58,999 nt of DNA. Origin: Candidatus Omnitrophota bacterium (lineage in GTDB: Bacteria; Omnitrophota; Gorgyraeia; JABMRJ01). Below the pieces are notes generated by a model. The model ran no database searches. It saw nothing but the letters and a program-made list of their open reading frames with translations, and had not been told where the DNA came from. This document shows positions 19,074-56,516 of the stretch, in pieces (position 1 is the first letter of the stretch; each line of letters starts with the position of its first letter). The stretch covers positions 1-58,999 of the forward strand of contig JADHWH010000003.1 in the NCBI GenBank assembly GCA_016783555.1, read 5' to 3'. The translations under genes and the position numbers were made by a program.

Positions 19074-19535
19074 ATGAAAGCGATTATTTCAAAAGGTATA
19101 GACGGGACTGTAGGGATTGGCGCAAAACTGGGCAGACTGCTTAAGGGCGGCGATGTCGTTGCTTTGGTCGGAGAGCTTGGTTCGGGCAAGACAACCCTTG
19201 TAAAAGGGATAGCAGAGGGACTCGGCGTCAAGGACTCAAGATATGTAAACAGCCCTTCATTTGTGATAATCAAGGAATATAGAGGTAATCTTCCCCTCTA
19301 CCATTTCGACATATATAGATTGGATAGTCCTTCTGACATGGAGACCGTCGGGTATAGGGAGTATTTCTACGCAGACGGGGTGAGCGTCATAGAATGGGCA
19401 GACAAGATTAAAGAGCTCCTGCCGGATGAATATTTAAATATAGAGCTCTCCATAAAAGGCAAAAGCGAAAGAGAGATAAAGATTATTCCCAAGGGGACTC
19501 GATACGACGACCTCTTAAGGAGATTGAAGTTATGA
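19074..19535 (+). CDS. tsaE: tRNA t6A37 biosynthesis ATPase TsaE
   Basis: GELGSGKTTLVKGI P-loop, SPSF.. and YHFDIYRL motifs, ~150 aa. Confidence 0.92.
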   Translation: MKAIISKGIDGTVGIGAKLGRLLKGGDVVALVGELGSGKTTLVKGIAEGLGVKDSRYVNSPSFVIIKEYRGNLPLYHFDIYRLDSPSDMETVGYREYFYADGVSVIEWADKIKELLPDEYLNIELSIKGKSEREIKIIPKGTRYDDLLRRLKL

Positions 19536-19652
19536 ACCCCGTTAGACCTCTAAGAGGTACTGATAGGGTTGACGCTCAGGATTTGTAGGGCAGGTTTAAA
19601 CCTGCCCTACAAATCAGGCAGAAATATAATTGAAAGGAGGTCTAACGGGGTG
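19533..19652 (+). repeat. Stop-to-start palindromic element, copy 1 (tsaE>tsaB); arms separated by an inserted 34-bp perfect palindrome
   Basis: TGA-ACCCCGTTAGACCTC (19533-19550) ... GAGGTCTAACGGGG-TG (19637-19652). A partial proximal partner is CCTC-TAA-GAGG. Confidence 0.85.
19581..19614. repeat. 34-bp perfect palindrome of GTAGGGCA type
   Basis: ATTTGTAGGGCAGGTTT|AAACCTGCCCTACAAAT; every base is self-complementary. Confidence 0.9.
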
Positions 19653-20342
19653 AAGATATTAGCTATCGAGACGTCGACCAGGAATTTAAGCATCGCAGTA
19701 GCGGATGAAAATTCTATATTGGCCGAATATAAGGGTGACTCGGTATTAAGACATTCACAGGACCTCATTCCTAATATAGAGATACTGCTAAAGAAGACCG
19801 GCTTAGGTCTGGCCGATATAGACTGTTTCGCAGTAAGTATAGGACCGGGTTCTTTTACCGGTTTAAGGGTGGGTGTCTCCATTATAAAAGGGCTTAACAT
19901 GGTTACGAATATACCCATAGTTACGGTTCCCACGCTGGATGTCATTGCCTGCAATGTCTTAGATACCCCTACCCCTATATGCGTCATATTGGACGCAAAA
20001 AAGAAAAATATATATAGTTCTTTATACAGAGTTAAAGACGGTGATATAATAAGAACGTGGGATTACCTCCTCGTCCCGCCCGATGAATTAATTGAGAGAA
20101 TAGACGATAAAGACGAAGAGATCTTATTCCTGGGAGACGCCATATCTTTTTACGGAGACCTTATTAGAGAAAGGCTTAAGAACGCAAAATTGGCCGATAG
20201 GAAATACTGGTTTCCGGATGCAAAGAGAGTGGCGCGCCTGGGAAGGAACAAATTTAAGAGAAGAGAGTTCGAAGACGCAGATGGTTTGGTGCCTATGTAT
20301 ATGTATTCAAGAGAATGCAACGTGAGGGGTATCGACAGATGA
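19650..20342 (+). CDS. tsaB: tRNA t6A37 biosynthesis protein TsaB
   Basis: ILAIETSTRNLSIAV...GPGSFTGLRVG. I prefer the GTG start at 19650, directly after GGAGGTCTAACGGG. The TTG at 19569 in the ORF track would translate the intergenic repeat. Confidence 0.88.
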   Translation: MKILAIETSTRNLSIAVADENSILAEYKGDSVLRHSQDLIPNIEILLKKTGLGLADIDCFAVSIGPGSFTGLRVGVSIIKGLNMVTNIPIVTVPTLDVIACNVLDTPTPICVILDAKKKNIYSSLYRVKDGDIIRTWDYLLVPPDELIERIDDKDEEILFLGDAISFYGDLIRERLKNAKLADRKYWFPDAKRVARLGRNKFKRREFEDADGLVPMYMYSRECNVRGIDR

Positions 20343-25006: not shown

Positions 25007-25038
25007 GCCGTAGGGCACACTTAAGTGTGCCCTACGGC
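25007..25038. promoter_or_regulatory. 32-bp perfect palindrome (GTAGGGCA type) in the ilvD leader; either an operator or a 5'-UTR hairpin
   Basis: GCCGTAGGGCACAC-TTAA-GTGTGCCCTACGGC lies between the predicted -10 box (24968-24973) and the SD AAGGAG (25043-25048). Confidence 0.7.
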
Positions 25039-28503: not shown

Positions 28504-28554
28504 GTCCTAACCTGGTAAGACCTAGCCGGGTAAAAATAAGGAGGGTTAGCGGAA

Positions 28555-31558: not shown

Positions 31559-31562
31559 AATG

Positions 31563-31701
31563 TTAAATCCGAAGTCCGAAATCCGAAATCCGAAAAAAAT
31601 TCGAAATCCGAATTTTCAAAATTCTGAAGTGTTTTTTTGACCATTTAAATTTTGGTCATTCGATATTGTTTCGAATTTCGATATTCGTATTTCGGATTTA
31701 A
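31563..31701. repeat. Heptad-periodic palindromic element, copy B (leuA to aroE)
   Basis: It has perfect 11-bp termini, TTAAATCCGAA at the left end and TTCGGATTTAA at the right. The arms show 7-nt periodicity (AAATCCG AAGTCCG AAATCCG AAATCCG ...). Confidence 0.9.
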
Positions 31702-31715
31702 CACATCTTATTGAC

Positions 31716-33304: not shown

Positions 33305-33477
33305 ATGAGGCCCGGACTTACGGAGCGTAAGCGAACGTAAGTCCGTTGGCCGAATTCAACCCTTGACATTTTGTCTATGAATTTGATAGGGCAAAATGTC
33401 AAGGGTTCAATTCGCACGTTCATAGAAGAGTTTCAAGGGAGATGTATTTACGAAAAATCAAAGATTTTTCGTAAATC
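33305..33477 (+). repeat. ~170-bp three-hairpin composite element, copy 1 (upstream of aroC)
   Basis: The first hairpin is GGACTTACG..CGTAAGTCC. The second is a 64-nt block, GGCCGAATTCAACCCTTGACATTTTGTCTATGAATTTGATAGGGCAAAATGTCAAGGGTTCAAT. The third has a perfect 14-bp stem, ATTTACGAAAAATC-AAA-GATTTTTCGTAAAT. Confidence 0.85.
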
Positions 33478-34639: not shown

Positions 34640-34774
34640 TTAAATCCGAAGCACGAAATCCGAAATTCGAAACAAATTCAAATTTTTAAATGTCTAAAAC
34701 GCTCAGTTTTGGTCATTTGGATTTTGGCAATTTGAAAATTGTTTCGGATTTCGATATTCGAATTTCGAATTTAA
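34640..34774. repeat. Heptad-periodic palindromic element, copy C (aroC to aroK)
   Basis: The left arm is identical to that of copy A (TTAAATCCGAAGCACGAAATCCGAAATTCGAAACAAATT) and the right arm is TTGTTTCGGATTTCGATATTCGAATTTCGAATTTAA. Confidence 0.9.
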
Positions 34775-34788: not shown

Positions 34789-35295
34789 ATGAAAAACATA
34801 GTGCTGGTTGGATTTATGGGGACGGGCAAAACCGTGATTGCAAAGAGCCTTGCCCGCAGATTGAAGATGAGGTATGTAAGCACAGACGATATTATTGAAC
34901 AGAGAGAGAAGAGGCCCATTAGTGATATATTCGCAAAAGACGGAGAGTCTTACTTTAGAAGAGTAGAGAAAAGAATAGTTAAGGAAGTCTCTCTTATGAA
35001 TAATATAGTAGTGGCGGCGGGCGGCGGCGTGGTTATCGATGAAGAAAACTTAAAGGACCTAAAAAAGAGAGGCGTTGTTATATGCTTGAACGCAAGCGCA
35101 GAAGATATACTGGAGAGGACAAAGACTTACGCGCACAGGCCGCTTTTAAATGTTCCCGACCCGCTGGGCAAGATCAGGGAATTACTGAGAGCGAGAGAGG
35201 CTTATTACAAGAGGGCGGATTACCAGATTAACACATCCGGCAGGACCAGAGATGTCGTGATCGACGAAATAGTCAGATTGTTAGAGAGGTTATGA
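34789..35295 (+). CDS. aroK: Shikimate kinase
   Basis: MKNIVLVGFMGTGKT P-loop, ~168 aa. The upstream 33 codons in the ORF track are a translation of palindromic element copy C. Confidence 0.9.
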   Translation: MKNIVLVGFMGTGKTVIAKSLARRLKMRYVSTDDIIEQREKRPISDIFAKDGESYFRRVEKRIVKEVSLMNNIVVAAGGGVVIDEENLKDLKKRGVVICLNASAEDILERTKTYAHRPLLNVPDPLGKIRELLRAREAYYKRADYQINTSGRTRDVVIDEIVRLLERL

Positions 35296-42046: not shown

Positions 42047-43955
42047 GATAGTAAGTTTCATCGTATCCTCTCTGCCGTTAAGTCTTGCGCTGTGGACAGG
42101 AAGGGTGTTAGGCCTTTTTATGTACCACTTCCACCCTAAGCGAAAGAGAATCGCGTATGCCAATCTCAAGGCCGCCTTCTCCAAAGAGAAAGAACCTTGT
42201 GAATTAAAATCTATACTCAGGCGCACCTACCAGAATTACGGGCAGAATATTATAGAGATGTTAAGGATACCCAGGGTCGACAGCGATTACCTGAAGAGAT
42301 TTATTACACTCGCAGGCCGCGCGAATTTCGACGAGGCAGAGGCCAAAAAAAGAGGCATAATCCTTCTTACGAGCCACTTCGGAAACTGGGAACTCGCAAG
42401 CCTTAAGAGCGCCGTGGAGGGCTATCCTATTTATGTCTTGGCCAGGCCCCAGAATTTAGAGAGGTTAAATAATCTCCTTAACAGCTATAGAGAGAAGCTG
42501 GGGTGTAGGGTGATAAACAGGGGGATGCCCTCAAGAGAGATGATAAGGGCCTTGAGGGATAATAAGATAGTCGGGATACTGGCCGACCAGGATGTAGGAA
42601 AATCCGGCATATTTATAAATCTTCTGGGAAGGCCTGCGTCACATGCGATAGGCCCGGCGAGACTGGCCAGGGATACAAATGCTTTAATATTGCCTATCTT
42701 CATAGTGAGGGAAAAAGGGCCAAAGCATCTTCTCTATATTGAGGAGCCTTTCGCCGTTTCGAATACGCCCGACCGCAACGCCGATATCAAGGAGGCGTTA
42801 GAGAAGCACGCTGGGACATTGGAGTCCTATATTAAGCGCTACCCGGATCAGTGGATGTGGGTATATACGAGATGGAAATCGACTCCCAAAAGGAGAATAG
42901 TAATATTAAGCGACGGAAAGCCCGGCCATTTGAATCAGTCATTGGCGGCGTTTAATATTATTAAAAGATGCAGGCGGGATTCGGGATGTAGAGACGAGGA
43001 TACGTCTCTTGAGATAATAGATGTTAAGTTTAAGAACCGTATATCGAGAATCGCCCTTTGGGTCTCTTCGCTCTTTGCCTCGCACGCCTGCCAGGGGTGC
43101 GCCATGCGCTTTAAGTTTGCCATGAGGGAAGATTCCTACAATCGCCTTACTAAGACTTATGCGGATATCGTAATATCCTGCGGCTCATCGCTTGGCGCCG
43201 TAAATATATTCCTATCGAAAGAGAATAACGCGAAGAATGTTATCATAATGAAGCCCGGTATCGGGACCTTAAAAGATTTTGATGTAGCTATAATACCGGC
43301 ACATGACAGGCCGAAGGAGGCCGATAACGTCGTAGTCACCGAAGGTTCCCCCACGCTTATAGATTCAAAGACGATGGAAGACGGCGCAAGAAATATCCGC
43401 CATGTCGCGAATCTTACAGAAAGAAAAAGACTCGGACTTCTCATAGGAGGGGATAACCCGGAGTATAGCCTCAGCGCCTGGTTAGCGGGCGAACTTATAA
43501 AACAAGTCACGGGTTTGATTGAGGAAAGAGATATGGAGCTTCTTGTGACCACTTCGAGGCGTACGCCGAAGAAGATCGAGGAGATGCTAAAGACCGGCTT
43601 AAGGCGCAACCCCCGCTGCAAACTCTTGATAATAGCCAATGAAAAGAATATAGATAACGCCGTAGGGGGCATATTAAATTTGAGCGAGATTGTATTGGTA
43701 TCTGCGGAGAGCATCTCTATGGTATCGGAGGCGGCATCATCAGGCAAAAAGACTATAGTCTTCGACCTCGAGACAAAGAGGCCTTCTTTTAAGCACGATT
43801 ATGCCATAGAGAGGCTCGCTTCGGAGAATTATATAACGCGAACCCCTGTCAGTAGGATTAGGAATACAGTTTTGGATTTATCAAACAAGGGAGATTCTGT
43901 AAAGAGACTCGATAATACCGAAAGGATGTATAAGAAATTATATAGGATTATTTAG
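41997..43955 (+). CDS. Fusion: lipid A late acyltransferase (LpxL/HtrB family) plus ELM1/DUF1022 (GtrOC1-like, GT-B-like) domain
   Basis: The N-terminal ~300 aa carry SHFGNWEL and ILADQD acyltransferase motifs. The C-terminal ~350 aa start with RIVILSDGKPGHLNQSLAA, typical of ELM1/DUF1022 proteins. Confidence 0.78.
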   Translation: MAQTRFTKDYAVYIGVRIVSFIVSSLPLSLALWTGRVLGLFMYHFHPKRKRIAYANLKAAFSKEKEPCELKSILRRTYQNYGQNIIEMLRIPRVDSDYLKRFITLAGRANFDEAEAKKRGIILLTSHFGNWELASLKSAVEGYPIYVLARPQNLERLNNLLNSYREKLGCRVINRGMPSREMIRALRDNKIVGILADQDVGKSGIFINLLGRPASHAIGPARLARDTNALILPIFIVREKGPKHLLYIEEPFAVSNTPDRNADIKEALEKHAGTLESYIKRYPDQWMWVYTRWKSTPKRRIVILSDGKPGHLNQSLAAFNIIKRCRRDSGCRDEDTSLEIIDVKFKNRISRIALWVSSLFASHACQGCAMRFKFAMREDSYNRLTKTYADIVISCGSSLGAVNIFLSKENNAKNVIIMKPGIGTLKDFDVAIIPAHDRPKEADNVVVTEGSPTLIDSKTMEDGARNIRHVANLTERKRLGLLIGGDNPEYSLSAWLAGELIKQVTGLIEERDMELLVTTSRRTPKKIEEMLKTGLRRNPRCKLLIIANEKNIDNAVGGILNLSEIVLVSAESISMVSEAASSGKKTIVFDLETKRPSFKHDYAIERLASENYITRTPVSRIRNTVLDLSNKGDSVKRLDNTERMYKKLYRII

Positions 43956-44005
43956 TCGTTAATATTCGCCCAGACGAAACTAACGACTAAATACTAACGA
44001 CTAAA
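43951..44005. repeat. TAGTCGTTA / TAACGACTA palindromic repeat, locus 1
   Basis: TTTAGTCGTTA-ATATTCGCCCAGACGAAAC-TAACGACTAAA-TAC-TAACGACTAAAC. Confidence 0.8.
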
Positions 44006-44006
44006 C

Positions 44007-46145
44007 ATGAACGTACTGCAGATCTTACCGGAATTAAATATCGGCGGAGTAGAAAGGGGCACAGTAGACCTCGCAAGATACCTTATGGCCAATGATCATA
44101 AGGCGGTGGTGGTCTCCGGCGGCGGCAGGCTTGTCAGGGAGCTGGATATGATAGGCGCAAGACACTATCGCCTGCCGGTAGGCAAGAAGTCCCTTATTAC
44201 CATGGCTGGAATGGTCGGCAAGCTCTGCGAGATAATAAAGAGGGAGAACATAGATATCGTTCATGCCCGCAGCAGGGTACCCGGCTGGATAGCCTTCTTT
44301 GCCTGTAAGATTACAAAGAGGCCTTTTATTACGACCGCGCACGGATACTATAAGAATATCTTCACAAGCCAGGTGATGGGCTGGTCCAAATTCGTTATCG
44401 CCGCCTCACACGTAATAGCAAGGCATATGATAGACGGTTTTAAGATTCCCCGCTCAAAGATAAAGTTTATACCGCGCGGTGTGGATCTCAATCGATTCGA
44501 GTTTGGCGAACCGAAAGAAAAAAGGATTAAAAAGAGGGATCTGCCGGGCCTTGCGAGGGACGGCGGCTTTACCGTCGGAGTCATATCGAGATTAACCCCG
44601 ATAAAAGGGCATATATACTTAATAAAGGCGTTGTCTGTAGTATCGAGGATGGTGCCCAAACTTAAATTGCTTATAGTAGGCGAGCCTTCCCCGGGAAAAG
44701 AAGGGTATAAGAGGGAGCTCGAGCTTTTGGTAAGGAGGTTAGGGCTTTCCCAGGTTGTAGAGTTTACGGGATGGAAAGAAGACATACCGGAAGTAATGTC
44801 ACAATTGGATCTCTTGGTACTGCCCAGTGTAACACAGGAGGCGTTCGGCAGAGTCATTATTGAGGCCCAGGCCTGCGGCGTACCTGTTGTAGCGACAAGG
44901 ATAGGCGGCATAGTCGATCTTATAGAGGACGGCGTAAATGGCCTGCTTGTAACGCCTGAAGATATACAGGCGCTTACAGAGTCGATGTTGAAGATCTATA
45001 AAGATCCCGAGTCTGCCCAGAGATTGGCCGTTGAGGCAAGGAGGAATGTCGAAGAGAAATTTTCATTAGATAAGATGGCGCAGAGGACAGTTGATTTGTA
45101 TAAAGAGACAATCGAGTCTCGTAATATACTGGTAATAAAAGTGAGCGCCTTAGGCGATGTAATACTCTCCATGCCTTCGCTTGGCGCTATAAGGTCTAAA
45201 TACCCCAATGCCACAATAAAGGTATTGGTAGGATTGGAATCGCGCCAGGTCTTTAAAGGATGCCCGTATATTGATGAGGTAATAGTCTGCGATTTTAAAG
45301 GCAGGGATAGATCTATGAAGAGTCTTTGGAGATTGGGGGCCCTGTTGAGGAATTCAAACTTTGATATGGTGATAGACCTTCAGAATAACCGGAGGAGCCA
45401 CATACTCGCATTCTTAAGTCTCGCCCCGCTCAGGTTCGGTTACTCAAACGGCAAGCTTTCATTTTTATTGAATAAAAAGGTTGAAGGCCCGAAGGACTAT
45501 ATCGATCCGGTCAGCCATCAGTTCAGGACTTTAAATTTAGCGGGGATAAAGTCAGATAATAAGAGACTAAAGCTATGGCCTCAGGAAGAGGAAGAAGAAT
45601 GGGCCGAGGGTTTTATAAAGGCCAATTGGGTAAATTTATCCAAACAGCGCCTTATCGGCATAAGCCCCAGGGCGAGCAGGCGCTGGTCGAGCAAGAATTG
45701 GCCGGTTCAGAATGTCGCTCTTCTATGCGATGAGCTTGCCCGGAGATTCAATACAAGGGTTGTTATAACCGGCACCAAAGATGACATAAGAGAGGCCCAT
45801 TCTATAAGGTCTATGGCAAAGAGTAAACCTATAATAGCGGCAGGGAAGACCGATATATTGCAATTAGCGGCCTTAATAAAGAGGTGTTCGATATTTATCA
45901 CAACCGACAGCGCTGCTATGCATATAGCGTCCTGCGTAAAGACGCCTTTTATAGCGCTATTCGGGCCTACAGAGCACGAGAGGCACGCGCCTGTATCTGC
46001 GGAGTATACTGTAATCGCCAAGGAACTGAAGTGCAGGCCGTGTTATCGGCCGACGTGCGGCAAGGGCTATAAATGTATGAAGAAGATCAGTGTTGAAGAC
46101 GTCATGAACGCTGTTGAGAGGTATCTGGGATATGAACCCCGTTAG
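44007..46145 (+). CDS. Fusion: GT4 glycosyltransferase plus GT9 (heptosyltransferase-family) domain, copy 1
   Basis: The N-terminal half has the GT4 E-x7-E region (EAFGRVIIEAQACGVPVVATRIGG). The C-terminal half has the GT9 signatures ILVIKVSALGDV and DSAAMHIA...LFGPT. Confidence 0.85.
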   Translation: MNVLQILPELNIGGVERGTVDLARYLMANDHKAVVVSGGGRLVRELDMIGARHYRLPVGKKSLITMAGMVGKLCEIIKRENIDIVHARSRVPGWIAFFACKITKRPFITTAHGYYKNIFTSQVMGWSKFVIAASHVIARHMIDGFKIPRSKIKFIPRGVDLNRFEFGEPKEKRIKKRDLPGLARDGGFTVGVISRLTPIKGHIYLIKALSVVSRMVPKLKLLIVGEPSPGKEGYKRELELLVRRLGLSQVVEFTGWKEDIPEVMSQLDLLVLPSVTQEAFGRVIIEAQACGVPVVATRIGGIVDLIEDGVNGLLVTPEDIQALTESMLKIYKDPESAQRLAVEARRNVEEKFSLDKMAQRTVDLYKETIESRNILVIKVSALGDVILSMPSLGAIRSKYPNATIKVLVGLESRQVFKGCPYIDEVIVCDFKGRDRSMKSLWRLGALLRNSNFDMVIDLQNNRRSHILAFLSLAPLRFGYSNGKLSFLLNKKVEGPKDYIDPVSHQFRTLNLAGIKSDNKRLKLWPQEEEEEWAEGFIKANWVNLSKQRLIGISPRASRRWSSKNWPVQNVALLCDELARRFNTRVVITGTKDDIREAHSIRSMAKSKPIIAAGKTDILQLAALIKRCSIFITTDSAAMHIASCVKTPFIALFGPTEHERHAPVSAEYTVIAKELKCRPCYRPTCGKGYKCMKKISVEDVMNAVERYLGYEPR

Positions 46146-46186
46146 ACCTTATAGGTCTAACGGGGATGAGGAGGTCTAACGAGGTG
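46133..46186 (+). repeat. Stop-to-start palindromic element, copy 3 (GT4::GT9 #1 > #2)
   Basis: TGAACCCCGTTAGACC-TTATA-GGTCTAACGGGG-ATGAG-GAGGTCTAACGAGG-TG. The upstream ORF here stops at the internal TAG (46143-46145). Confidence 0.88.
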
Positions 46187-48343
46187 AACATATTACTGCT
46201 GACCACACATCTTAATATCGGCGGGATTGCCTCTTACATAGTAAACCTGGCCAAGCGCCTGAAAAGAAAAGGCCATAAGGTGGTAGTCTCTTCAAGCGGC
46301 GGCGATATGGTCGATGAATTAACGAAAGAAGACATTCCTCACGTCTATATCAATATAAGGACAAAGTCGGAGCTTAGCCCCAAGCTTTTAATTTCGATGC
46401 CCAAGGTCCTGTCATTGATTAAAGACGAAAAGATAGATGTTATCCACGCCCATACGCGCGTAACGCAGGTATTGGCGTCGGCCGTATCTCGATTGCTTGC
46501 TATTCCGTATATTGCCACGTGCCACGGCTTCTTCAGGCCGCACTTCTCGAGAAGGATATTTAAGTGCTGGGGCGACAAGACGATAGCGATAAGCGATGCC
46601 GTCAAGGCCCATCTTATAGATGATTTTTATCTCAAGCCCGATAATATAGCCCTGATCTATAACGGTGTAGATTTAGAGAAATTTAGAAAAGATATAGAGA
46701 ACAGCCGGAAGGAGTCTCTTAGAAAAAATCTGGGTTTAACAGATAAAGAGAGAGTGGTTATAGGCGCCATAGGCAGATTATCTCCTGTAAAAGGTTATAG
46801 GTATCTAATCGAGGCCTTTAAGAGGCTTATGGACAAAGATAGCGGAGCCTTGCGGCTTTTGATAGTAGGAGACGGCCCTGAAAGAGAATCACTCAAAGCG
46901 CAATGCCTGAGGCTTGGTGTAGATGAGTATGTTAAATTCGCATCACCTAATCCCGATACACCGCTTCTCTTTTCAATTATTGATATATTCGTGTCAAGCT
47001 CCGTGCAGGAAGGGCTGGGGCTCTCTTTAATAGAGGCGCTTGCTTCAGGAAGCCCCGTTGTTGCTACAGACGTAGGCGGTATTAAGAGTGTGGTAAAGGA
47101 TAAAGAGACCGGTATGTTAGTAAGGCCGAAAGAGGCAGGGGCGCTTGCAGAGGGCATCTCGCAACTATTGAAAAGTGCGGATTTGAGAAATAAGTTATCA
47201 AATGAAGGGCGTAAGTATGCGGAAGAAAAATTTGATATAAAGAATATGGCTGATGAAGTCGAAAGGGTATATAAAGAGGTAACGAAAAGAGATCCCCGCC
47301 CCGTAAGACCCGTAGGGTCTAACGGGGCCCGCATACTCATAGTAAATGTTAACTGGCTGGGCGATGTCTTATTTACGACACCCTTTATAAAGGCGATAAG
47401 AAGAAGGTTCCCTGCGAGTTACATGGCTTGTATGGTGGTGCCTCGCTGCAAGGAGATACTGGAGGATAATCCGCGGATCGATGAGATTATAATCTACGAT
47501 GAAAAAGGCAAACACAGAAGCATTATGGGAAAGCTCAAGTTCATTATAACTTTAAAAAGAAAGAACTTCAGCACCGCTTATATACTCCATAGATCCTTTA
47601 CAAAGGCCCTTATGGTATATTTAAGCGGCATAAAGAGAAGGATAGGTTATAATACAAAAAGAAGAGGCCCTCTTCTTACTAAGGCTATCGACGAAACAGA
47701 TCCTGGTATTCATAAAGTAGAATATTTTTTGAAGATAGCGGCTAGCTGCGGCGCGGAAACGGGCGATAAAGATTATGAGTTTTTTGTCAAGAGGCCGCAG
47801 AGAGATAAGATAGACAAGCTTCTCAGAGATAGAGACATAAGGGGGACAGATATTATCGTTGCCTTAAACCCCGGGGGAAACTGGCCTCCTAAGAGGTGGC
47901 CGAAAGAACACTTTGCCGAGCTTGCGGACAGGCTTTCAAGGGAGCTTAATGTCAAGGCGATTATAACAGGCGCGCCTAAAGATTTAAAGCTTGCGCAAGA
48001 TATCATAGATTTATCACAGACCAGGCCGGCAAGTGCCTGCGGTCAGACATCAATAAAAGAGCTGGCCGCCCTTTTGGAAAGATCAAACCTTGTCATATCG
48101 TCGGACTCAGGGCCTATGCACATAGCCTTGAGCGTAAAGACAAAGGTGATTACGTTATTCGGCCCGACATCAGAGGAGATAACCGGCCCGTATGGGAGGG
48201 GTAATTATCTCGTTATCAAAAAAGACGTCGGCTGTCCGGTCCCGTGTTATAATTTTGACTGCAGGGATTATAAGTGCATGAAGGCGGTAACCGTTGACGA
48301 GGTCTTCAATAAAGCGCGGGAGATATTATTTGGCTCTGAATGA
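46166..48343 (+). CDS. Fusion: GT4 glycosyltransferase plus GT9 domain, copy 2 (alternative GTG start at 46184)
   Basis: GT4 region (EGLGLSLIEALASGSPVVATDVGG), then the linker RDPRPVRPVGSNGA encoded by a repeat relic, then GT9 (RILIVNVNWLGDV ... DSGPMHIA..LFGPT). Confidence 0.82.
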   Translation: MRRSNEVNILLLTTHLNIGGIASYIVNLAKRLKRKGHKVVVSSSGGDMVDELTKEDIPHVYINIRTKSELSPKLLISMPKVLSLIKDEKIDVIHAHTRVTQVLASAVSRLLAIPYIATCHGFFRPHFSRRIFKCWGDKTIAISDAVKAHLIDDFYLKPDNIALIYNGVDLEKFRKDIENSRKESLRKNLGLTDKERVVIGAIGRLSPVKGYRYLIEAFKRLMDKDSGALRLLIVGDGPERESLKAQCLRLGVDEYVKFASPNPDTPLLFSIIDIFVSSSVQEGLGLSLIEALASGSPVVATDVGGIKSVVKDKETGMLVRPKEAGALAEGISQLLKSADLRNKLSNEGRKYAEEKFDIKNMADEVERVYKEVTKRDPRPVRPVGSNGARILIVNVNWLGDVLFTTPFIKAIRRRFPASYMACMVVPRCKEILEDNPRIDEIIIYDEKGKHRSIMGKLKFIITLKRKNFSTAYILHRSFTKALMVYLSGIKRRIGYNTKRRGPLLTKAIDETDPGIHKVEYFLKIAASCGAETGDKDYEFFVKRPQRDKIDKLLRDRDIRGTDIIVALNPGGNWPPKRWPKEHFAELADRLSRELNVKAIITGAPKDLKLAQDIIDLSQTRPASACGQTSIKELAALLERSNLVISSDSGPMHIALSVKTKVITLFGPTSEEITGPYGRGNYLVIKKDVGCPVPCYNFDCRDYKCMKAVTVDEVFNKAREILFGSE
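47299..47327 (+). repeat. In-frame relic of the stop-to-start element inside the GT4::GT9 #2 linker
   Basis: CCCCGTAAGACC-CGTA-GGGTCTAACGGGG is translated as PVRPVGSNG, exactly at the GT4/GT9 domain boundary. Confidence 0.75.
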
Positions 48344-48398
48344 TGAACCCCGTTAGACCTCATAAGAGGTCAGCGGGGCGAGGAGGTCTAACGGGGTG
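48341..48398 (+). repeat. Stop-to-start palindromic element, copy 4 (GT4::GT9 #2 > GT9)
   Basis: TGA-TGAACCCCGTTAGACCTC-ATAA-GAGGTCAGCGGGG-CGAG-GAGGTCTAACGGGG-TG. Confidence 0.9.
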
Positions 48399-49376
48399 AA
48401 GATAGATAAAAAAGATATAAAACGAATATTGTTGATTACCCTTACCAATGTAGGCGATATAATCTTGACCACGCCTATTATTGCCGCGCTCGACAAAGCC
48501 TTTCCAGATGCGCGGCTCGATGTCATGGTGGGGCCTCTCGGAAAGAATATATTTATTAATCATCCCGGGGTTTTTAAGGTAATAATCTATGACAAGCATG
48601 TCTCTATTGGCGAGAAGAAACGGCTGGTGCAGAAATTGAAACATATGAAATATGATTTGGTAATAGACCTTAAGAATTCTATGTTTCCCATGCTTATAGG
48701 GTCAAGATACAGAACGAGCCCCTTGCAGACAGTCCCTAAGGATGTCATCCATAAGAGAGATTTTCACTTATGGAAATTAAAATATTTTGATATAGATACG
48801 CGGGATGTTCCGTTTTCCATCCATGTGAGCAGAAAGGACGAGGATTATATAGATTATTTGCTTCGTGACATGCCGAATAAGGATAAGCTGGTTGCTGTAA
48901 GCCCTACGGCGAAGAGCCTGATAAAGAGGTGGAAGAAAAATGGCTTTGCAGAAGTTTGCGACAAGCTTAAGAAGGAACTGGGAGCGACGGTGGCTATGGT
49001 CGGTGATCGATCCGACAGAGAGAGCATTGATGAAATAGCGCGTGACATGAAATCCGACACCGTTAATCTTGCCGGTATGACAACCATACCCCAGCTTGCG
49101 CATCTCATAAAGAATTCCAGGCTCCTTATCTCCAATGACAGCGCACCCATGCATATAGCCAGCGCGGTCGGCACAAAGGTCCTCGCGATCTTCGGGCCGA
49201 CGGACCCGAATAAATACGGGCCCTTGGGCAAAGGCGACAAGGTTATAAAAAAAGAGTTACATTGTTCTCCCTGCGAGATAGCGCAGTGTAAGTTTAAACA
49301 CGAGTGCATGAAACTGATTACGGTTGATGAGGTGTATGAGACAGCAAGGAAGATGTTGGAAGAGACCAGAGGCTAG
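48396..49376 (+). CDS. GT9-family glycosyltransferase (heptosyltransferase-like)
   Basis: RILLITLTNVGDII and NDSAPMHIA..IFGPT motifs, with a GTG start immediately after GGAGGTCTAACGGG. Confidence 0.88.
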   Translation: MKIDKKDIKRILLITLTNVGDIILTTPIIAALDKAFPDARLDVMVGPLGKNIFINHPGVFKVIIYDKHVSIGEKKRLVQKLKHMKYDLVIDLKNSMFPMLIGSRYRTSPLQTVPKDVIHKRDFHLWKLKYFDIDTRDVPFSIHVSRKDEDYIDYLLRDMPNKDKLVAVSPTAKSLIKRWKKNGFAEVCDKLKKELGATVAMVGDRSDRESIDEIARDMKSDTVNLAGMTTIPQLAHLIKNSRLLISNDSAPMHIASAVGTKVLAIFGPTDPNKYGPLGKGDKVIKKELHCSPCEIAQCKFKHECMKLITVDEVYETARKMLEETRG

Positions 49377-49380: not shown

Positions 49381-50430
49381 ATGTTGAATGCAAAGAGGAT
49401 ATTGATAACGCGGACTGATAGATTAGGCGATGTTATCCTTTCAACGCCGGTGTTGAGGGCTGTAAGAGAGGTATATCCGGATAGTTTCATAGCTATGATG
49501 GTAAGGCCGTACACAAAAGAATGTGTCGAAGGCAACCCATATATTAATGAGGTCATACTGTATGATAAATACGGGATAGATAAGAGTATATCGAGTTCAT
49601 TTAGGTTTGCGCTGGAGTTGCGAAAGAGGAGGTTCGACCTTGCGCTGATCCTGCATCCGACAAACAGGATGAATTTAATGATCTTTTTGGCCGGTATCCC
49701 CAGGAGGGTAGGTTTTAATAAAAAACTGGGATTTTTATTGACAAAAAGGCTGCCGCACACGAAACATTTAGGCGAAAAACATGAAGTCGATTATACTCTG
49801 GATATAGTAAGGGCCATAGGGATAATACCCAAACATAGGTCTTTATACATGCCGATAAAAAAATCGGTCCAAAAGAGCGTAGGCGAAACCCTTTTAAGGC
49901 ATGGAGTCTTTGAGAGCGATAGACTGGTAGCGCTGCATCCGTCTGCAAGCTGCCTTTCTAAAAAGTGGCCGTCAAAGAAATTCGCCATACTGGCCGATAG
50001 GCTGATAGACAAATACAATGTAAAGATTGCGCTTATAGACGGATCCGACGGCAAGGCGGATGCGGATGAGACTAGACGGAATATGAGGCGTGATGTAATT
50101 GATCTTTCCGGAAAGACCGGCATCTCTGAACTCGCGTCATTGCTTAAAAGATGCGTCCTTTTCATCTCGAATGATTCCGGCCCGGTGCATCTCTCATCAG
50201 CGGTCGGAACCCCCGTGATAAGCATATTCGGCAGAAAAGATCCCGGCCTGGGTCCTATTCGCTGGGGTCCAACGGGAAGATATGATATAATGTTACATAA
50301 AGACGTAGAGTGCGAACGCTGCCTTGCGCACAATTGCGATAAGGATTTTTTATGTCTTAATGCTATAAAGGAAGACGAGGTGTTAGAAAAAGCTGAAGCC
50401 ATTTTAAAAAGGAATCGGAGGCTGCCATGA
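49381..50430 (+). CDS. GT9-family glycosyltransferase (heptosyltransferase-like)
   Basis: RILITRTDRLGDV and NDSGPVHL..IFG motifs. I prefer the ATG at 49381, 5 nt after the upstream stop, over the ORF-track start at 49324. Confidence 0.86.
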   Translation: MLNAKRILITRTDRLGDVILSTPVLRAVREVYPDSFIAMMVRPYTKECVEGNPYINEVILYDKYGIDKSISSSFRFALELRKRRFDLALILHPTNRMNLMIFLAGIPRRVGFNKKLGFLLTKRLPHTKHLGEKHEVDYTLDIVRAIGIIPKHRSLYMPIKKSVQKSVGETLLRHGVFESDRLVALHPSASCLSKKWPSKKFAILADRLIDKYNVKIALIDGSDGKADADETRRNMRRDVIDLSGKTGISELASLLKRCVLFISNDSGPVHLSSAVGTPVISIFGRKDPGLGPIRWGPTGRYDIMLHKDVECERCLAHNCDKDFLCLNAIKEDEVLEKAEAILKRNRRLP

Positions 50431-51400: not shown

Positions 51401-51541
51401 TAAATTCGAAATCCGAATATCGAAATCCGAAACAATTCCGAATTTTCAAAATTGTGAATGACCAAAACCAAATGTTTCGAACATTTGAAAATTCGAGTTT
51501 AGAATTTGTTTCGAATTTCGGATTTCGTGCTTCGGATTTAT
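51401..51541. repeat. Heptad-periodic palindromic element, copy E (corA to CNNM1), termini inverted relative to copy A
   Basis: The right end is the exact reverse complement of the copy A left arm (TAAATCCGAAGCACGAAATCCGAAATTCGAAACAAA). The core is in the same orientation as in copy A. Confidence 0.9.
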
Positions 51542-51555: not shown

Positions 51556-52542
51556 ATGGCGATTTCCTTCACACTTATAATATTGCTTTTAGGCTCGGCC
51601 TTCTTTTCCGGTTCTGAGACCGCTCTATTCAGTTTAAGCAAGATCAGGGTAAAACGCCTTCAATTAGAAAATACGAAGAATTCAGGACTGCTCGCCCAAC
51701 TCTTAAACAGACCCCGCAGACTTATAATATCCATCCTTATCGGCAATATGCTCGCGAATATCATGGCGTCGACCACCGCTTCGTCTTTTAGTATGAGAAT
51801 GTTCGGGGATAAGGGTATAGGCATCTCCATTGTTTGTATGACTCTTCTGATTTTAATAGTCGGCGAGATAACTCCCAAGGTCATAGCAATACGGAATTCA
51901 GAGAAGATATCGCTTGCCGTTATCCCGTATGTACACTTAGCGTCTAAATTATTTTTTCCGATAAAAAAGATACTCCATCTTATAGTAAATATGCTTACGC
52001 CGCTTTTCGCAGGAAGGATCAAGGCCCAGAGGCTGCGTCTTACCGAAGAAGAGCTTAGGAAGGCCGTTGAGCTCGGAAGAAGAGAGGGCGTCTTGGGCGT
52101 TAGGGAAGAGGAGATGATAAAGGGGGTTTTTAAATTCGGGGATAAGACGGCAAAAGATGTAATAATCCCGCCCAGAAGAATAGTTGCGGTTGATATATCT
52201 ACCCCTTTAAGCACTATCAGATCGATAATCACTAAGAAAGAATTGTCCCGCATGCCTGTCTTTGAGGAAAGGCTGCATAATATAGTCGGCGTACTATACG
52301 CAAAGGATTTAATCATCGCCAGCCAAAAAGGCCCGTTTTCGTTAAGAGAGATACTGAGAGAGCCGTTTTACGTCGATGAGAATATAAAGCTGGACGAGCT
52401 CCTTAAGAAATTCAGGACGCATAGGGTACATATGGCGCTTGTAAAGAACTCTAAGGGCAAACTTTTAGGTTTGGTTACACTGCAGGATCTGCTGGAGGAG
52501 ATAATGGGCCAGATACGGGATATCAAGGAAGGGATTACATGA
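51556..52542 (+). CDS. CNNM/DUF21 plus CBS-pair membrane protein (CorB/CorC-related, lacking the CorC_HlyC C-terminal domain)
   Basis: DUF21 N-terminus (FFSGSETALFSLS), then a CBS pair (..VDENIKLDELLKKFRTHRVHMALV). Confidence 0.85.
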   Translation: MAISFTLIILLLGSAFFSGSETALFSLSKIRVKRLQLENTKNSGLLAQLLNRPRRLIISILIGNMLANIMASTTASSFSMRMFGDKGIGISIVCMTLLILIVGEITPKVIAIRNSEKISLAVIPYVHLASKLFFPIKKILHLIVNMLTPLFAGRIKAQRLRLTEEELRKAVELGRREGVLGVREEEMIKGVFKFGDKTAKDVIIPPRRIVAVDISTPLSTIRSIITKKELSRMPVFEERLHNIVGVLYAKDLIIASQKGPFSLREILREPFYVDENIKLDELLKKFRTHRVHMALVKNSKGKLLGLVTLQDLLEEIMGQIRDIKEGIT

Positions 52543-52594
52543 ACCCCGTTAGACCTCATAGGAGATCAGCGGGGAGGGGAGGTCTAACGGGGTG
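52540..52594 (+). repeat. Stop-to-start palindromic element, copy 5 (CNNM1>CNNM2)
   Basis: TGA-ACCCCGTTAGACCTC-ATAG-GAGATCAGCGGGG-AGGG-GAGGTCTAACGGGG-TG. Confidence 0.9.
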
Positions 52595-53590
52595 AATATA
52601 ATCTTAGGGATTCTTATAATCCTTCTCTGCGTTATATTCGAGGGCTTCTTTGCCGGTTCAGAGATCGGCATCATATCCTGCAACCGCATAAGGATGAGTA
52701 ATCTTGCCGACAGGAAGAATAAAAGAGCGAAGATCATTATCTCTTTTCTGGAAAACCCCGAGGATTTCTTAAGCACTACTCTAGTGGGCGTTAATCTTTC
52801 GGTAATAATAGGCTCTTCTGTGGCGACCGCTTTAGTATCAAGATATGTAAGGCACGCAGGCCATGAGGCTATTATAGCCACAGCGATAATCCTGCCGTTA
52901 GTCCTTATATTCGGCGAAATAGTACCAAAGATTATATATCAGCAGCATTCAGATACGCTGGCGCTTCTCTCCGCGTATCCTTTAAAGATGGCCTCTTTTG
53001 TACTCTTTCCTTTTACCTTCTTTGCCACAAGGATATCGCATTTAGTTTCAAAGATATTTACCAAAGGCAGCGCTAAGAAGAATCCTTATGTCTCGAGAGA
53101 AGAGATACGCCTGCTCTTACTTGAGGCCGCAAAAGACGGCCTGCTGGACAAGGCCGAGATAGACATGACAAGCGAGATATTCGATTTCGGAAGGACAAGC
53201 GTCCAATCTGTCATGGTCCCTCTTAATAAGGTAGTATCCGCCTCTATTCTTTCGAGTACAAAAGATATTATAGAACTCATATCGCAAAGCGGTTTTTCGC
53301 GCATACCTATTTGCAAGGAGAGAGAGGATAATATCATAGGGACAATAGAGATGAGCGATCTGGTTAATAAAGATATAGAAAAGAGAGATCTAAAAAAGCT
53401 GATACTTCCGCCGTACAAAGTAACAGAGGACAGATTGTTAGAGGATATGCTAAAGGATTTTCAGGTTAATGAAGAGAATATGGCCGTAGTAGTCGATAAG
53501 AAAGGCAACGCCATCGGCATTGCCACTATAGAAGATATCATAGAAGAGATCTTTGGTGAAATAGAAGACGAGTATGACGTGAGGAGATAG
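52592..53590 (+). CDS. CNNM/DUF21 plus CBS-pair membrane protein, paralogue 2
   Basis: FFAGSEIGIIS DUF21 motif and a CBS pair, with a GTG start immediately after GGAGGTCTAACGGG. Confidence 0.85.
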   Translation: MNIILGILIILLCVIFEGFFAGSEIGIISCNRIRMSNLADRKNKRAKIIISFLENPEDFLSTTLVGVNLSVIIGSSVATALVSRYVRHAGHEAIIATAIILPLVLIFGEIVPKIIYQQHSDTLALLSAYPLKMASFVLFPFTFFATRISHLVSKIFTKGSAKKNPYVSREEIRLLLLEAAKDGLLDKAEIDMTSEIFDFGRTSVQSVMVPLNKVVSASILSSTKDIIELISQSGFSRIPICKEREDNIIGTIEMSDLVNKDIEKRDLKKLILPPYKVTEDRLLEDMLKDFQVNEENMAVVVDKKGNAIGIATIEDIIEEIFGEIEDEYDVRR

Positions 53591-54592: not shown

Positions 54593-54602
54593 AGAACCAT
54601 TG

Positions 54603-54686
54603 ATTAGTCGTTAGTATTTAGTCGTTAGTATTTAGTCGTTAGTTTTTAGTTTCGTCTAGACGATTACTAACGACTAACGACTAATT
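54603..54686. repeat. TAGTCGTTAGT tandem/palindromic repeat, locus 2 (centre inverted relative to locus 1)
   Basis: Three tandem 14-mers TAGTCGTTAGT(A/T)TT (54605-54646), then the centre TAGTTTCGTCTAGACG, then TAACGACTAACGACTAA. Confidence 0.82.
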
Positions 54687-54700
54687 GCCAGGAGTTAAAA

Positions 54701-55714
54701 ATGAAACAACAAAGTTTTTCCAGGCTTAAGAAGATTATATCAAACTTTGAAAAGACCAAGGTCTTGGTCATAGGCGATTTGATACTGGATGAATTTATAT
54801 GGGGAAGCGTTGAACGGATATCTCCGGAGGCGCCGGTGCCGGTAGTCTGGGTAGACAAGGAGAGTTATATGCCGGGGGGCGCTTGCAACGTCGCTAATAA
54901 TATTGCAACACTGGGGGGAAAGGCGGAGCTTGTAGGCGTGGTAGGGAATGATGAAAGAGGAAGATTATTAAAGAGCGAGCTGGTAAAGAAAGGTGTTGCC
55001 ATAGACGGCATTGTAGTAGATGATACAAGGCCGACTGTGCTCAAATCGCGCGTGATAGCCCATAAACAGCAAGTGGTCCGCATTGATAAAGAGGTAAGAG
55101 ATTCCATATCTAAAGAGATATTGACCGAGGTCGTAAATTACGTAAGAGAGAGGATTAAAGATATAGATATTCTGATAATAGAAGATTACGGAAAGGGCAT
55201 GATAACCTCTCAGCTTTTAAAACGTATAGTCCCCCTCGCCAAAAGGCACAGAAAGATAATAGCCGTAGACCCTAAAGAAGAGCATCTTTCTTTATATAAA
55301 GGCGCAACGCTCATAACCCCAAACGCCGATGAAACATTCAGGGCCACCGGCATTAAATTAAAGGACGAAAAGTCTATAGCGGAGGCCGGAAAGAAACTGC
55401 TCGGCAAATTAGGATGCAAGATGGCCTTGATTACGCTGGGCGAGAAGGGTATGGCGCTTTTTAAAGAGGGCAGGAAGCGGCTTTGCATACCTACTGTTGC
55501 GCGGGAGGTATATGATGTTTCCGGAGCGGGCGATACGGTTATAGGCGCGTTTTGCCTTGCGCTTGCAAGCGGTGCGAGTGATGTGGAAGCGGCGTATATA
55601 GCTAACTACGCGGCAGGGATAGTCGTAAGTAAGATTGGTATAGCGGTTGTCGAAAGAGAAGAACTCATAGGGAGAATAAAAGAGGAGCTTGCTAGGACGA
55701 AATGGAAGCGATAG
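54701..55714 (+). CDS. hldA: D-glycero-beta-D-manno-heptose-7-phosphate kinase (RfaE domain I only)
   Basis: VLVIGDLILDEFIWG..RISPEAPVPV and a PfkB-type C-terminal motif (DVSGAGDTV). The adenylyltransferase domain II is absent from this ORF. Confidence 0.88.
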   Translation: MKQQSFSRLKKIISNFEKTKVLVIGDLILDEFIWGSVERISPEAPVPVVWVDKESYMPGGACNVANNIATLGGKAELVGVVGNDERGRLLKSELVKKGVAIDGIVVDDTRPTVLKSRVIAHKQQVVRIDKEVRDSISKEILTEVVNYVRERIKDIDILIIEDYGKGMITSQLLKRIVPLAKRHRKIIAVDPKEEHLSLYKGATLITPNADETFRATGIKLKDEKSIAEAGKKLLGKLGCKMALITLGEKGMALFKEGRKRLCIPTVAREVYDVSGAGDTVIGAFCLALASGASDVEAAYIANYAAGIVVSKIGIAVVEREELIGRIKEELARTKWKR

Positions 55715-56442
55715 GAATAATACCGGCCAGATATGGGTCAACGAGATTCGAAGGAAAGGTCCTCGCCGACCTCATGGGCAAACCCGTTATTCAGCACGTC
55801 TATGAAATGGCAAAGAAGGCCAAGACGCTCGATGATCTCATTATCGCCACGGACGACGAGAGGATATATAAGTGTGTCGAGGGCTTCGGCGGCAAGGCCG
55901 TCCTTACTTCCATAGACCAGCCGACGGGGACCGACAGGCTTACGGAAGTCGTAAATCCTATTGATGTTAAGATAATAGTAAATGTGCAGGGCGATGAGCC
56001 CTTGGTGCACTATACCATGATAGATGAATTGGTCAGGACCATGCTGGAAGACGACTCAATAAATATGGCCACAGCAATAAAGAGGGTGGAAGACAAAGAT
56101 GAAATAATGGACCCTAATATAGTAAAGGCGGTCATAGATAAACAGGGTTTTGCTTTATACTTTTCAAGAAGCCCCATACCATTTGAGAGGGGGGCTCAAT
56201 CAAAGAACTTCTATAAGCATTTAGGCATATATGCCTATACAAAAGATTTCCTGTTTACATTTACCAATTTGCCTAAGAGTGACCTGGAAGGTATCGAATG
56301 CCTCGAACAGTTAAGGGCCTTAGAAAACGGATACAAGATTAAAGCCGTGGAGACAAGGTATAACACTATAGGCATAGATACGCCGGAGGACTTAGAGAAG
56401 GCAAGGGAGTTACTCTTAAAGAGAGAAGAGGCTAAAAAGTGA
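55702..56442 (+). CDS. kdsB: 3-deoxy-manno-octulosonate cytidylyltransferase
   Basis: IGIIPARYGSTRFEGKVL and VNVQGDEP motifs. Confidence 0.94.
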   Translation: MEAIGIIPARYGSTRFEGKVLADLMGKPVIQHVYEMAKKAKTLDDLIIATDDERIYKCVEGFGGKAVLTSIDQPTGTDRLTEVVNPIDVKIIVNVQGDEPLVHYTMIDELVRTMLEDDSINMATAIKRVEDKDEIMDPNIVKAVIDKQGFALYFSRSPIPFERGAQSKNFYKHLGIYAYTKDFLFTFTNLPKSDLEGIECLEQLRALENGYKIKAVETRYNTIGIDTPEDLEKARELLLKREEAKK

Positions 56443-56516
56443 ATCCCGTTAGACCTTTTCTAACGGGTTCTGGAAGATGACGAAAAGACAAGATAGCGGG
56501 GAGGTCTAACGGGATG
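56440..56516 (+). repeat. Stop-to-start palindromic element, copy 6 (kdsB>kdsA), T/A variant
   Basis: TGA-ATCCCGTTAGACC-TTT-TCTAACGGGTT ... GAGGTCTAACGGG-ATG. Confidence 0.88.

Follow-up and report, generated by a model that had tools for sequence, protein, structure and literature searches.

A probable MITE-like mobile repeat at the start codons of tightly packed Omnitrophota genes

The repeat and the gene junctions that it occupies

The DNA analysed here (the window) is a stretch of 58,999 nucleotides from Candidatus Omnitrophota bacterium (GenBank assembly GCA_016783555.1, contig JADHWH010000003.1, positions 1 to 58,999 of the forward strand), in which a short repeat with terminal inverted repeats lies at six co-directional gene junctions, every time on the plus strand. 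Pfam assigns the genes on either side to TsaE and TsaB, AroK and DprA, two GT4::GT9 fusions followed by a GT9 protein, two CNNM/CBS proteins, and KdsB and KdsA; the rest of the window consists of housekeeping genes, and its sole recombinase is XerC-like, in a dprA-topA-xerC context. A first-pass annotation of the sequence had reported six modules at these positions and had given these names to the flanking genes, and both observations hold: the arm sequence CCCGTTAGACC, with at most one mismatch, matches the two strands of the window 16 times versus 0.68 expected, and none of 100 dinucleotide-preserving shuffles reached 16.

At the six junctions the module has the form TGAA-YCCCGTTAGACC…GGAGGTCTAACGGGR-TGAA or, in its exact anatomy, a left TGAA, an element YCCCGTTAGACC…GGTCTAACGGGR, and a right TGAA. 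In generalised form, TGAA is followed by Y-CCCGTTAGACC (arm A), a short loop, a complementary arm that is weaker, a spacer, (G)GAGGTCTAACGGG-R, and TGAA. The direct repeat TGAA…TGAA around every module had been missed in the first-pass description. The final base of the element (R, a purine) is base 1 of the downstream GTG or ATG in 6/6 window copies, and GGAGG or GAGG is found 9 nt 5' of that base in 6/6, so that the Shine-Dalgarno sequence (SD) and the start do lie in the distal arm, whose end is the first base of the start codon, as had been claimed. The left and right terminal inverted repeats, of approximately 13-15 bp, read YCCCGTTAGACCT(C) and (G)AGGTCTAACGGGR respectively, and a third, weaker internal copy of the right repeat usually follows directly after the left one. 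The left end carries stop codons in two frames, TGA and the TAG within GTTAGAC. The typical element is 42-55 nt long; longer copies have extra internal sequence or a nested insertion.

The copy between tsaE and tsaB (19533-19654) has a left TGAA at 19533-19536, an element of 114 nt at 19537-19650, a right TGAA at 19651-19654 and a new GTG at 19650; its length is due to an unrelated perfect palindrome (19580-19615) inserted into it. The copy between aroK and dprA (35293-35347; element 35297-35343, 47 nt) has TGAA on either side and a new ATG at 35343. The copy between the first and second GT4::GT9 genes (46133-46188; element 46137-46184, 48 nt; new GTG 46184) has an intact proximal arm and a distal arm with one mutation (CGAGG), and the copy between the second GT4::GT9 gene and the GT9 gene (48344-48400; element 48348-48396, 49 nt; new GTG 48396) is followed by those at CNNM1>CNNM2 (52540-52596; element 52544-52592, 49 nt; new GTG 52592) and kdsB>kdsA (56440-56518; element 56444-56514, 71 nt; new ATG 56514). 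A seventh full copy lies in the same genome just upstream of the window (L142, 4726-4781).

A scan of one genome per GTDB species with an unanchored two-arm pattern, flanks unconstrained, returned 48 loci, about two thirds of them from approximately 16 Omnitrophota metagenome-assembled genomes (MAGs, counted at species level). Some 15 of the 48 do not belong to this family, being plain hairpins with short loops, or terminators, in unrelated taxa (Streptomyces, Arthrobacter, Paraferrimonas and cyanobacteria, for example); a few element-bearing bins are labelled Planctomycetia or Nitrospiraceae, labels that are repeated here as given. The sources of element-bearing DNA are groundwater, the Black Sea, Lake Tanganyika, Guaymas and marine samples. 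The Omnitrophota loci occur on either contig strand and are always co-oriented with the gene (ATGAAC-CCCGTTAGACC … GGAGGTCTAACGGG-GTGAA), and 27 copies, window included, end exactly on an RTG followed by a long open reading frame (ORF). In these 27 the terminal base pair is matched without exception and the helix measures 12-17 bp in 26. Two subfamilies are distinguished by their end bases, C…G (20 copies) and T…A (seven copies, including those at aroK>dprA and kdsB>kdsA), with no mixed copies; both occur inside single genomes. The terminal purine of the right repeat together with the duplicated TG gives GTG in the C…G subfamily and ATG in the T…A subfamily.

The distribution is patchy among relatives. 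The genome of the window has seven three-arm copies in approximately 77 kb, plus two in-frame two-arm copies, and there is no copy in 20.8 kb of the syntenic relative L051 or in 894 kb from 80 relatives anchored on IlvB (IlvB identity 60-86%). A relaxed search with up to two mismatches per arm in 338 kb of element-bearing DNA retrieved only parts of known elements. Gene pairs joined by copies in other MAGs include ABC ATPase>aminotransferase, rpmH>rnpA and secY>adk.

Empty sites, target duplication and decay

Syntenic contigs were reached through KdsA homologues and, for tsaE>tsaB and aroK>dprA, through IlvB-anchored metagenome loci. All six junctions have empty counterparts in syntenic relatives, with one TGAA at the position of an RTGA stop/start. 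At kdsB>kdsA, L049 (KdsA 89% identical) reads …GGCCAATGAAGACAAGGGATGT, an ATGA overlap with one TGAA, for comparison with …AAAAAGTGAA[element]TGAAGACAAGGGATGT in the window; this junction is empty in L049 and L050 (CCAATGAAGACAAGGGATGT) as well as in L051, L059 and L060. L051 (78%) has a plain overlap or an abutting stop and start at four junctions: CNNM1>CNNM2 (ATTGTGAATATAAT), second GT4::GT9>GT9 (CAAGATGAAAATCAAT / CAAGATGAAAATC), first>second GT4::GT9 (TAGGTGAACATATTACTGCT) and kdsB>kdsA. At second GT4::GT9>GT9 in L049, a different repeat fills the spacer before a single ATGAAG. In the IlvB-anchored loci, a single RTGAA is found at tsaE>tsaB (L063, GGACATGAAACTT; L072 and L074, AATAATTGAARAT; L101, CGATGAAACTT) and at aroK>dprA (L083, AAACATGAACGAT; L074, TTATTATGACAG).

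The four bases on the two sides of the element are identical in 22 of the 27 start-codon copies, and where flanks other than TGAA occur, both sides differ in step: TGCG/TGCG in L025, TGAG/TGAG in L047, TAAA/TAAA or TTTA/TTTA in a two-arm hairpin class described below, and CCCG/CCCG around a copy inside an ORF. The 4-bp duplication is therefore genuine host sequence, of fixed length, at sites that are filled in one genome and empty in another. This co-variation bears on the idea that the repeat is a relic of a single-strand transposon of the HUH/Y1 type (IS200/IS605-PATE or REP/RAYT), which would insert 3' of TGAA and carry a TGAA of its own at the right end, in contrast to a MITE of the DDE type with a true duplication. 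Hairpin-forming ends and a tetranucleotide at the left boundary would suit such an element, and the TGAA copies alone give the same sequence under both models, but a right-hand tetranucleotide that follows the left one (TGCG, TGAG, TAAA/TTTA, CCCG) is host DNA and not a fixed end. The repeats are also terminal rather than subterminal and without a GTAG head, the copies have no Y1 transposase gene in their neighbourhood, and two copies on one contig (L014), 5.4 kb apart, lie in opposite orientations, each following its gene. An HUH/Y1 origin is thus very unlikely. The specific identities of an IS200/IS605-derived PATE (right tetranucleotide varying with the left, repeats terminal) and of a REP/REPIN of the RAYT type (arm GTTAG instead of GTAG, 4-bp duplication present, no Y1 transposase nearby) were rejected.

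At CNNM1>CNNM2, L049 retains an orthologous copy in which both arms are mutated and the start is now TTG. Its RNA folds like shuffled sequence (z -0.2), versus a folding free energy (dG) of -33.4 kcal/mol and z -6.0 for the window copy; the helix has been lost without compensation. Patchy presence, subfamilies within genomes and uncompensated decay together are the signature of a mobile element and not of a conserved regulator.

The first-pass annotation had tied arm A to the upstream stop codon. A TGA does stand directly before arm A in 6/6 window copies, but the functional stop lies elsewhere in two of them: at the first>second GT4::GT9 junction the upstream ORF ends at the TAG within arm A (46143-46145), and at second GT4::GT9>GT9 the real stop is an in-frame TGA at 48341-48343, followed by the TGAA of the duplication. 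In other MAGs the true stop is found at -8, -9, -11, -12, -14 or -16, or at the TAG of arm A (+5), and RTGAA is still present; this persistence, together with the empty sites at all six junctions, contradicts a fixed tie to the stop. The register to the new start is the same in the 27 copies, all co-oriented with their genes, but the distance to the stop varies, and copies in ORFs and intergenic hairpin-class copies exist. Directly before the left TGAA stands A in 23 of the 27 copies and G in three, and a purine-rich, SD-like run lies 7-13 nt upstream of it. The left flank, RTGAA included, is the old ribosome-binding site and start of the downstream gene, and the register to the stop codon is a by-product, because the element lands on starts that overlap or abut stops.

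Reading from this old start always begins M-N-P-V-R-P in the 27 copies. In 11 it terminates at the distal-arm TAA that lies 4 nt short of the new start ("…EV*"); in three, at a TGA that overlaps this start; in four it continues in frame into the downstream gene; and in eight it meets an early stop, the remaining copy (L026) being unscored for a mis-registered left flank. The 18/27 mini-ORFs that reach the distal arm are about as many as expected by chance. The four copies that read through (L004, L009, L023 and L046) have an element length ≡ 2 (mod 3), and with the old start in frame with the downstream gene and no stop between, two alternative N-termini are possible. In L015 (875-925, minus strand), an RsmI-like ORF seems to begin at the old ATG and to continue across a two-arm copy whose new start is gone (GCA, not GTG), whereby the RsmI-like N-terminus gains approximately 16 residues.

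These observations argue strongly for the repeat being a non-autonomous mobile element family of Omnitrophota, resembling MITEs (miniature inverted-repeat transposable elements) and inserted at the start codons of tightly packed genes, with translational coupling as the likely filter for the insertions that are tolerated. Insertion would duplicate 4 bp of the target, overwhelmingly TGAA, and where copies survive, this TGAA would belong to a downstream start (RTGAA, bases 2-5) in a tight junction of co-directional genes, typically a former RTGA overlap. After insertion, the left TGAA would still give or follow the upstream stop, and the left repeat would add a TAG in a second frame; the right repeat would bring GGAGG, and its terminal G or A with the duplicated TG would rebuild a GTG or ATG 9 nt downstream, so that both neighbouring genes survive. 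What had looked like a stop-to-start clamp would, under this scheme, be the inverted repeats of a transposon plus a target-site duplication. The earlier suggestion that the linked genes are stoichiometric partners is then unnecessary, for what the junctions have in common is a former RTGAA overlap, not gene function.

Predicted coupling and target choice

In a polycistronic mRNA, the left repeat would pair with the right one, and the new SD and start would be hidden. They would become exposed when a ribosome that completes the upstream gene, or one that has begun at the old start, unwinds the left repeat, which would explain why the element is tolerated only at coupled junctions and in only one orientation. 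Folding of all six junction RNAs is consistent with this mechanism: in minimum-free-energy and centroid folds, arm A is paired with the distal arm and the SD and first base of the start are buried (dG -26 to -64 kcal/mol, z -3.8 to -8.9, with dG -63.6 and z -8.9 for the tsaE>tsaB copy). The third arm always stands beside arm A, giving an order "A a a" in 23 of the 23 copies that have one, though the terminal repeats are nearly symmetric. When a terminating ribosome was modelled by forbidding arm A to pair, the mean probability of being unpaired, from the SD through the start, went up from 0.18 to 0.53 with the element as observed and only from 0.25 to 0.36 with it flipped. On these models, coupling is a likely filter for tolerated insertions; alternatively, the stronger SD of the distal arm (GGAGG versus GAGG/AAGG) may account for the orientation bias.

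The first-pass annotation had proposed an RNA switch, that is, a helix evolved or domesticated to enforce coupling or stoichiometry, with the proximal arm as a tuning decoy. The sequestered SD and start in the six minimum-free-energy folds, the strict sense orientation with "A a a" order, the larger gain of accessibility in the observed than in the flipped orientation, and the high occupancy of tight RTGAA sites would all suit a switch, as would the terminal pair, which co-varies in 27/27, and the G·U-compatible T:G pairs that lengthen the helix at positions 14-15. The same terminal co-variation is equally expected of two transposon subfamilies, however, and close relatives use a plain -4 overlap at the very same junctions. 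The only orthologous pair (CNNM1>CNNM2) shows decay of the helix without compensation instead of conservation, related lineages do without the element throughout the 894 kb, and the linked pairs (aroK>dprA, ABC ATPase>aminotransferase, rpmH>rnpA, secY>adk) share only the RTGAA junction. A switch evolved for its junctions is therefore an unlikely origin; what survives of the proposal is the geometry of coupling, namely a sequestered SD and start at tight junctions, arms in a constant order, and release of the SD when arm A is blocked.

A related proposal accepts the mobile element and makes processing its main effect on RNA: RNase III, or some other enzyme specific for double strands, would act on the helix and split the operon mRNA at the junction, or else the arms would be bound by a protein. 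The perfect, GC-rich helices of 13-16 bp with dG -26 to -64 kcal/mol, the conservation of the arms across distant genomes, and an analogy to Correia and ERIC repeats (reviewed in PMC3184786) would be in keeping with this. Cleavage in the helix would deprive the downstream cistron of its SD or start, an outcome that fits poorly with essential downstream genes such as kdsA, tsaB and adk, and processing leaves the orientation bias and the restriction to tight junctions unexplained; it appears improbable as the main effect.

The choice of target was considered in the window and in relatives. In element-free relatives, TGAA is the commonest type of RTGA overlap (82/217). The window has no TGAA among its nine remaining overlaps and six that are filled, that is 6/15, the expected proportion, all of it occupied; its TGAG, TGAT and TGAC overlaps are empty. 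Six of the 14 RTGAA starts in the window, those at tight junctions, are occupied, and the other eight are empty, seven having a spacer of at least 20 nt and one a doubtful -35-nt overlap. The 43 other non-coding TGAA/TTCA sites of the window are likewise all empty. Other colonised MAGs still hold empty TGAA overlaps. Over all 27 copies, 25 lie within approximately 21 nt of an upstream co-directional stop.

A tentative extension of the mobile-element reading, possible but less likely than not to be correct, is that the element homes on start codons: its machinery would not take any TGAA but would actively choose RTGAA starts where translation is coupled across the junction, and evolution would have made the terminal repeat an operon adaptor independent of frame. 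Such an adaptor would supply TGA and TAG stops at its 5' end and the SD and first base of the new start at its 3' end, with the distal arm giving ribosomes, according to frame, a TAA stop 4 nt ahead of the new start, a TGA stop that overlaps it, or the in-frame start itself. Heavily colonised genomes would then have had most of their -4 TGAA overlaps swapped for a structure-gated coupling module, which could be co-opted to set the ratio of downstream to upstream expression. Start sites may be actively targeted or preferred by the machinery, insertions elsewhere may be purged, or occupied sites may have been positively selected.

Several observations weigh against the mobile-element interpretation and its coupling filter. 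In approximately 1.4 Mb of DNA there is no autonomous element with these repeats and no transposase beside any copy. A search of the same DNA for a parent insertion sequence (IS) found neither distant arm pairs enclosing a transposase nor solo ends beside one, and the neighbours of hairpin-class copies were ordinary genes; IS1380-like elements, which have 4-5-bp duplications and ends that begin with CC, may be a lead to the parent. No site is both filled and empty within the population: the kdsB>kdsA copy is present in all five contigs of the same organism that were examined, and the lone difference between L142 and L143 (apparently 28 nt) is a run of N, a scaffold gap. Random insertion at TGAA followed by purging is not an obvious explanation for the use of none of approximately 35 other non-coding TGAA/TTCA sites, and near-tight RTGAA starts are empty at 19074 (tsaE, 20-nt spacer) and 50430 (a second corA ATG). 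Tight junctions already make up approximately 69% of the background in this genome, so that the enrichment at them is moderate. The coupling step, finally, is a thermodynamic prediction.

Other copies and repeats, and comparison with known systems

Besides the start-codon copies, the second GT4::GT9 gene contains an in-frame two-arm copy (47295-47331, plus strand), CCCCGTAAGACCC-GTA-GGGTCTAACGGGG at 47299-47327 with CCCG on both sides, which contributes PVRPVGSNG to the linker that joins the GT4 domain to the GT9 domain. It is shared with L049; the linker of L051 is 7 aa shorter and without arms, and is too diverged for a clean empty site to be called. A second in-frame two-arm copy with the same GTA loop (L142, 497-525) lies in a TPR protein, and its arms carry a compensatory C>T / G>A change; both copies give PVRPVGSN(G/R). 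The surrounding region (44007-48343) consists of tandem paralogous GT4::GT9 fusions of 712 and 719 aa, followed by two stand-alone GT9 genes. Near the 3' end of a GT9 ORF, a lone arm-like 11-mer on the minus strand (50266-50276, GGTCCAACGGG in plus-strand letters), 7 nt before an ATG and conserved in L049 at 3886-3896, may be a relic or a coincidence. The ilvB>ilvN spacer (28504-28554, plus strand), …AACCTGGTAAGACCT…GGAGGGTTAGCGGAA-GTGAA, is with moderate confidence an older, decayed relic of the element: aligned to the consensus it scores 32, versus 20.9±3.6 for shuffles (0/300 as good). Its fold is not better than that of shuffles, and in many relatives this junction measures -4 to +1.

The hairpin class, with two arms flanked by TAAA/TAAA or TTTA/TTTA, includes copies directly after a TAA stop (L001, L003, L007) and others in intergenic, repeat-rich DNA. 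In MAG VGKK01 (L010, L020, L038, L043, L044), hairpin-class copies contain an inner CCCGGCC…GGTCGGG hairpin and are embedded in (ACATTACAC)n-like repeats, often at contig ends, which suggests that they belong to a larger composite repeat in that genome.

Other repeats are present as well. A second abundant intergenic class consists of long imperfect palindromes of short tandem units (AAATCCGAAAT… in this genome), found in the window at 5824-5961, 31561-31712, 34642-34765, 39589-39718 and 51407-51540, and also in L049 (1915-1975), L124 and many IlvB-anchored loci; at ilvB>ilvN in relatives, analogous palindromes have lineage-specific units (ACGTCC, AAGATTT, CCAAAT, AATGGAA and others). Perfect palindromes of 16-18 bp with a GTAGGGCA…TGCCCTAC core, REP-like with a GTAG head, occur at 19580-19615 and 25007-25038, and in L037 one separates the element from the upstream stop. 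The intergenic regions upstream of aroC and topA (33351-33414 and 36503-36560) hold two near-identical inverted repeats, CAAAATGTCAAGGG / CCCTTGACATTTTG, which contain TTGACA and could be a shared promoter or operator, and two genes beginning with ATGAA have tandem and inverted TTAGTCGTTAGT / ACTAACGACTAA repeats upstream of them (54603-54685 and 43955-44006). Invasion by small repeats seems to be general at the gene junctions of Omnitrophota.

For mobile-DNA biology, the element would exemplify a minimal transposon that persists in small, gene-dense genomes where nearly every insertion is lethal, by landing on stop/start overlaps and carrying all that is needed to end one gene and restart the next. 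For the study of translation, it would offer dozens of natural, near-isogenic junctions before and after insertion (a -4 overlap versus a 50-nt spacer with a clamped SD), which could pit RNA-unfolding against re-initiation models of coupling. Gene callers misplace starts at copies: the listed ORF of the second GT4::GT9 fusion begins at ATG 46166, inside the element, and GTG 46184 is likely the real start. In-frame copies may be misread, or ORFs fused or extended. The unit of approximately 49 nt may also serve synthetic biology as a ready-made insulated intercistronic cassette, and Omnitrophota are flagged as unusually rich in small repeats that invade junctions. The interest of the family lies in the precise replacement of stop/start overlaps, in self-contained translational signals within a transposon of approximately 49 nt, and in the question of active start targeting.

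Comparison with described repeats agrees with the earlier remark that the consensus was not recognised as a described repeat family, as none of the Rfam or named repeat families that could be tested matched. All 4227 Rfam families gave no match in the window at the gathering threshold; below it were PK-repZ (30.7 versus 44 bits, window 48339-48472, E 0.0016) and CopA (31.1 versus 60). PK-repZ is the leader-peptide-coupled pseudoknot of IncI plasmids, and the match is probably a generic hairpin-plus-SD resemblance, though the mechanism is similar. In the literature, the motif strings occur only as unrelated primers, and no prior description of the motif or of Omnitrophota repeats was found. Integron attC sites were rejected: GTTAGAC/GTCTAAC fit the GTTRRRY/RYYYAAC cores, but in inverted order, with GTT… leading on either strand, and the neighbouring genes have housekeeping functions and keep their synteny. 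Also rejected were recoding of UGA with a selenocysteine insertion sequence (SECIS) and translational bypassing (T4 gene 60, mitochondrial byps), since the flanking genes encode separate conserved proteins, stops are present in other frames, and relatives have plain overlaps. A viral vector was discounted because the single IMG/VR match is a different, longer hairpin.

The in-frame copies recall the Rickettsia palindromic elements (RPEs), which lie in frame within protein genes; RPEs, however, are 100-150 bp long and of unrelated sequence, and the in-ORF form is a minority among the Omnitrophota copies. Neisseria REP2 and Borrelia IR repeats also carry a ribosome-binding site and ATG, but lack terminal inverted repeats and a target-site duplication; REP2, moreover, has a promoter and a complete ATG and lies upstream of transcription units, whereas the Omnitrophota element has no promoter and its start is completed by host bases.

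Translational coupling by RNA unfolding is reviewed in PMC12548453 for rpmI-rplT, MS2 coat-lysis, f1 VII-IX and repY-repZ, where the downstream SD and start are paired with the end of the upstream cistron and are opened by translating or terminating ribosomes. The six predicted Omnitrophota folds have exactly that layout. The known cases, however, are single, locus-specific, vertically conserved and experimentally validated, whereas the Omnitrophota structure is predicted, portable and absent from close relatives.

With the bacterial MITEs (Correia/NEMIS of Neisseria, cyanobacterial Nezha, ERIC), the element has in common that it is short, non-coding and multi-copy, with terminal inverted repeats, a fixed-length duplication, sites filled or empty between relatives, and stable hairpins when co-transcribed. 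It conforms to the structural definition of a MITE, save that no parent IS was found in the approximately 1.4 Mb. At 42-55 nt it is among the smallest, its target is TGAA at start codons instead of TA or intergenic sites, and its terminal repeat encodes an SD, the terminal purine of a start codon, and stop codons.

The closest analogue is the mycobacterial interspersed repetitive unit (MIRU; Supply et al. 1997, as summarised in PMC3184786 and PMC12548453), a repeat of 40-100 bp in polycistronic operons that has empty and filled sites, tetranucleotide direct repeats, imperfect terminal inverted repeats and GC-rich internal inverted repeats, and that is said to insert at start codons, with expression of the target gene kept by translational coupling (PMC12548453, PMC3184786). 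The Omnitrophota element likewise occupies start codons in operons between tetranucleotide direct repeats. It differs in belonging to another phylum, with no sequence relationship seen, and in that all copies are single, with no tandem arrays of the variable-number (VNTR) kind. MIRU uses an internal ORF that overlaps the downstream start by -4; here the relay frame is found in only 3/27 copies and open mini-ORFs are not above chance, so a relay ORF of the MIRU kind was rejected, and the terminal repeat of the Omnitrophota element instead contains an SD together with base 1 of the new start, plus a hairpin. The repeat is a new MITE-like family, and not a categorically new RNA switch.

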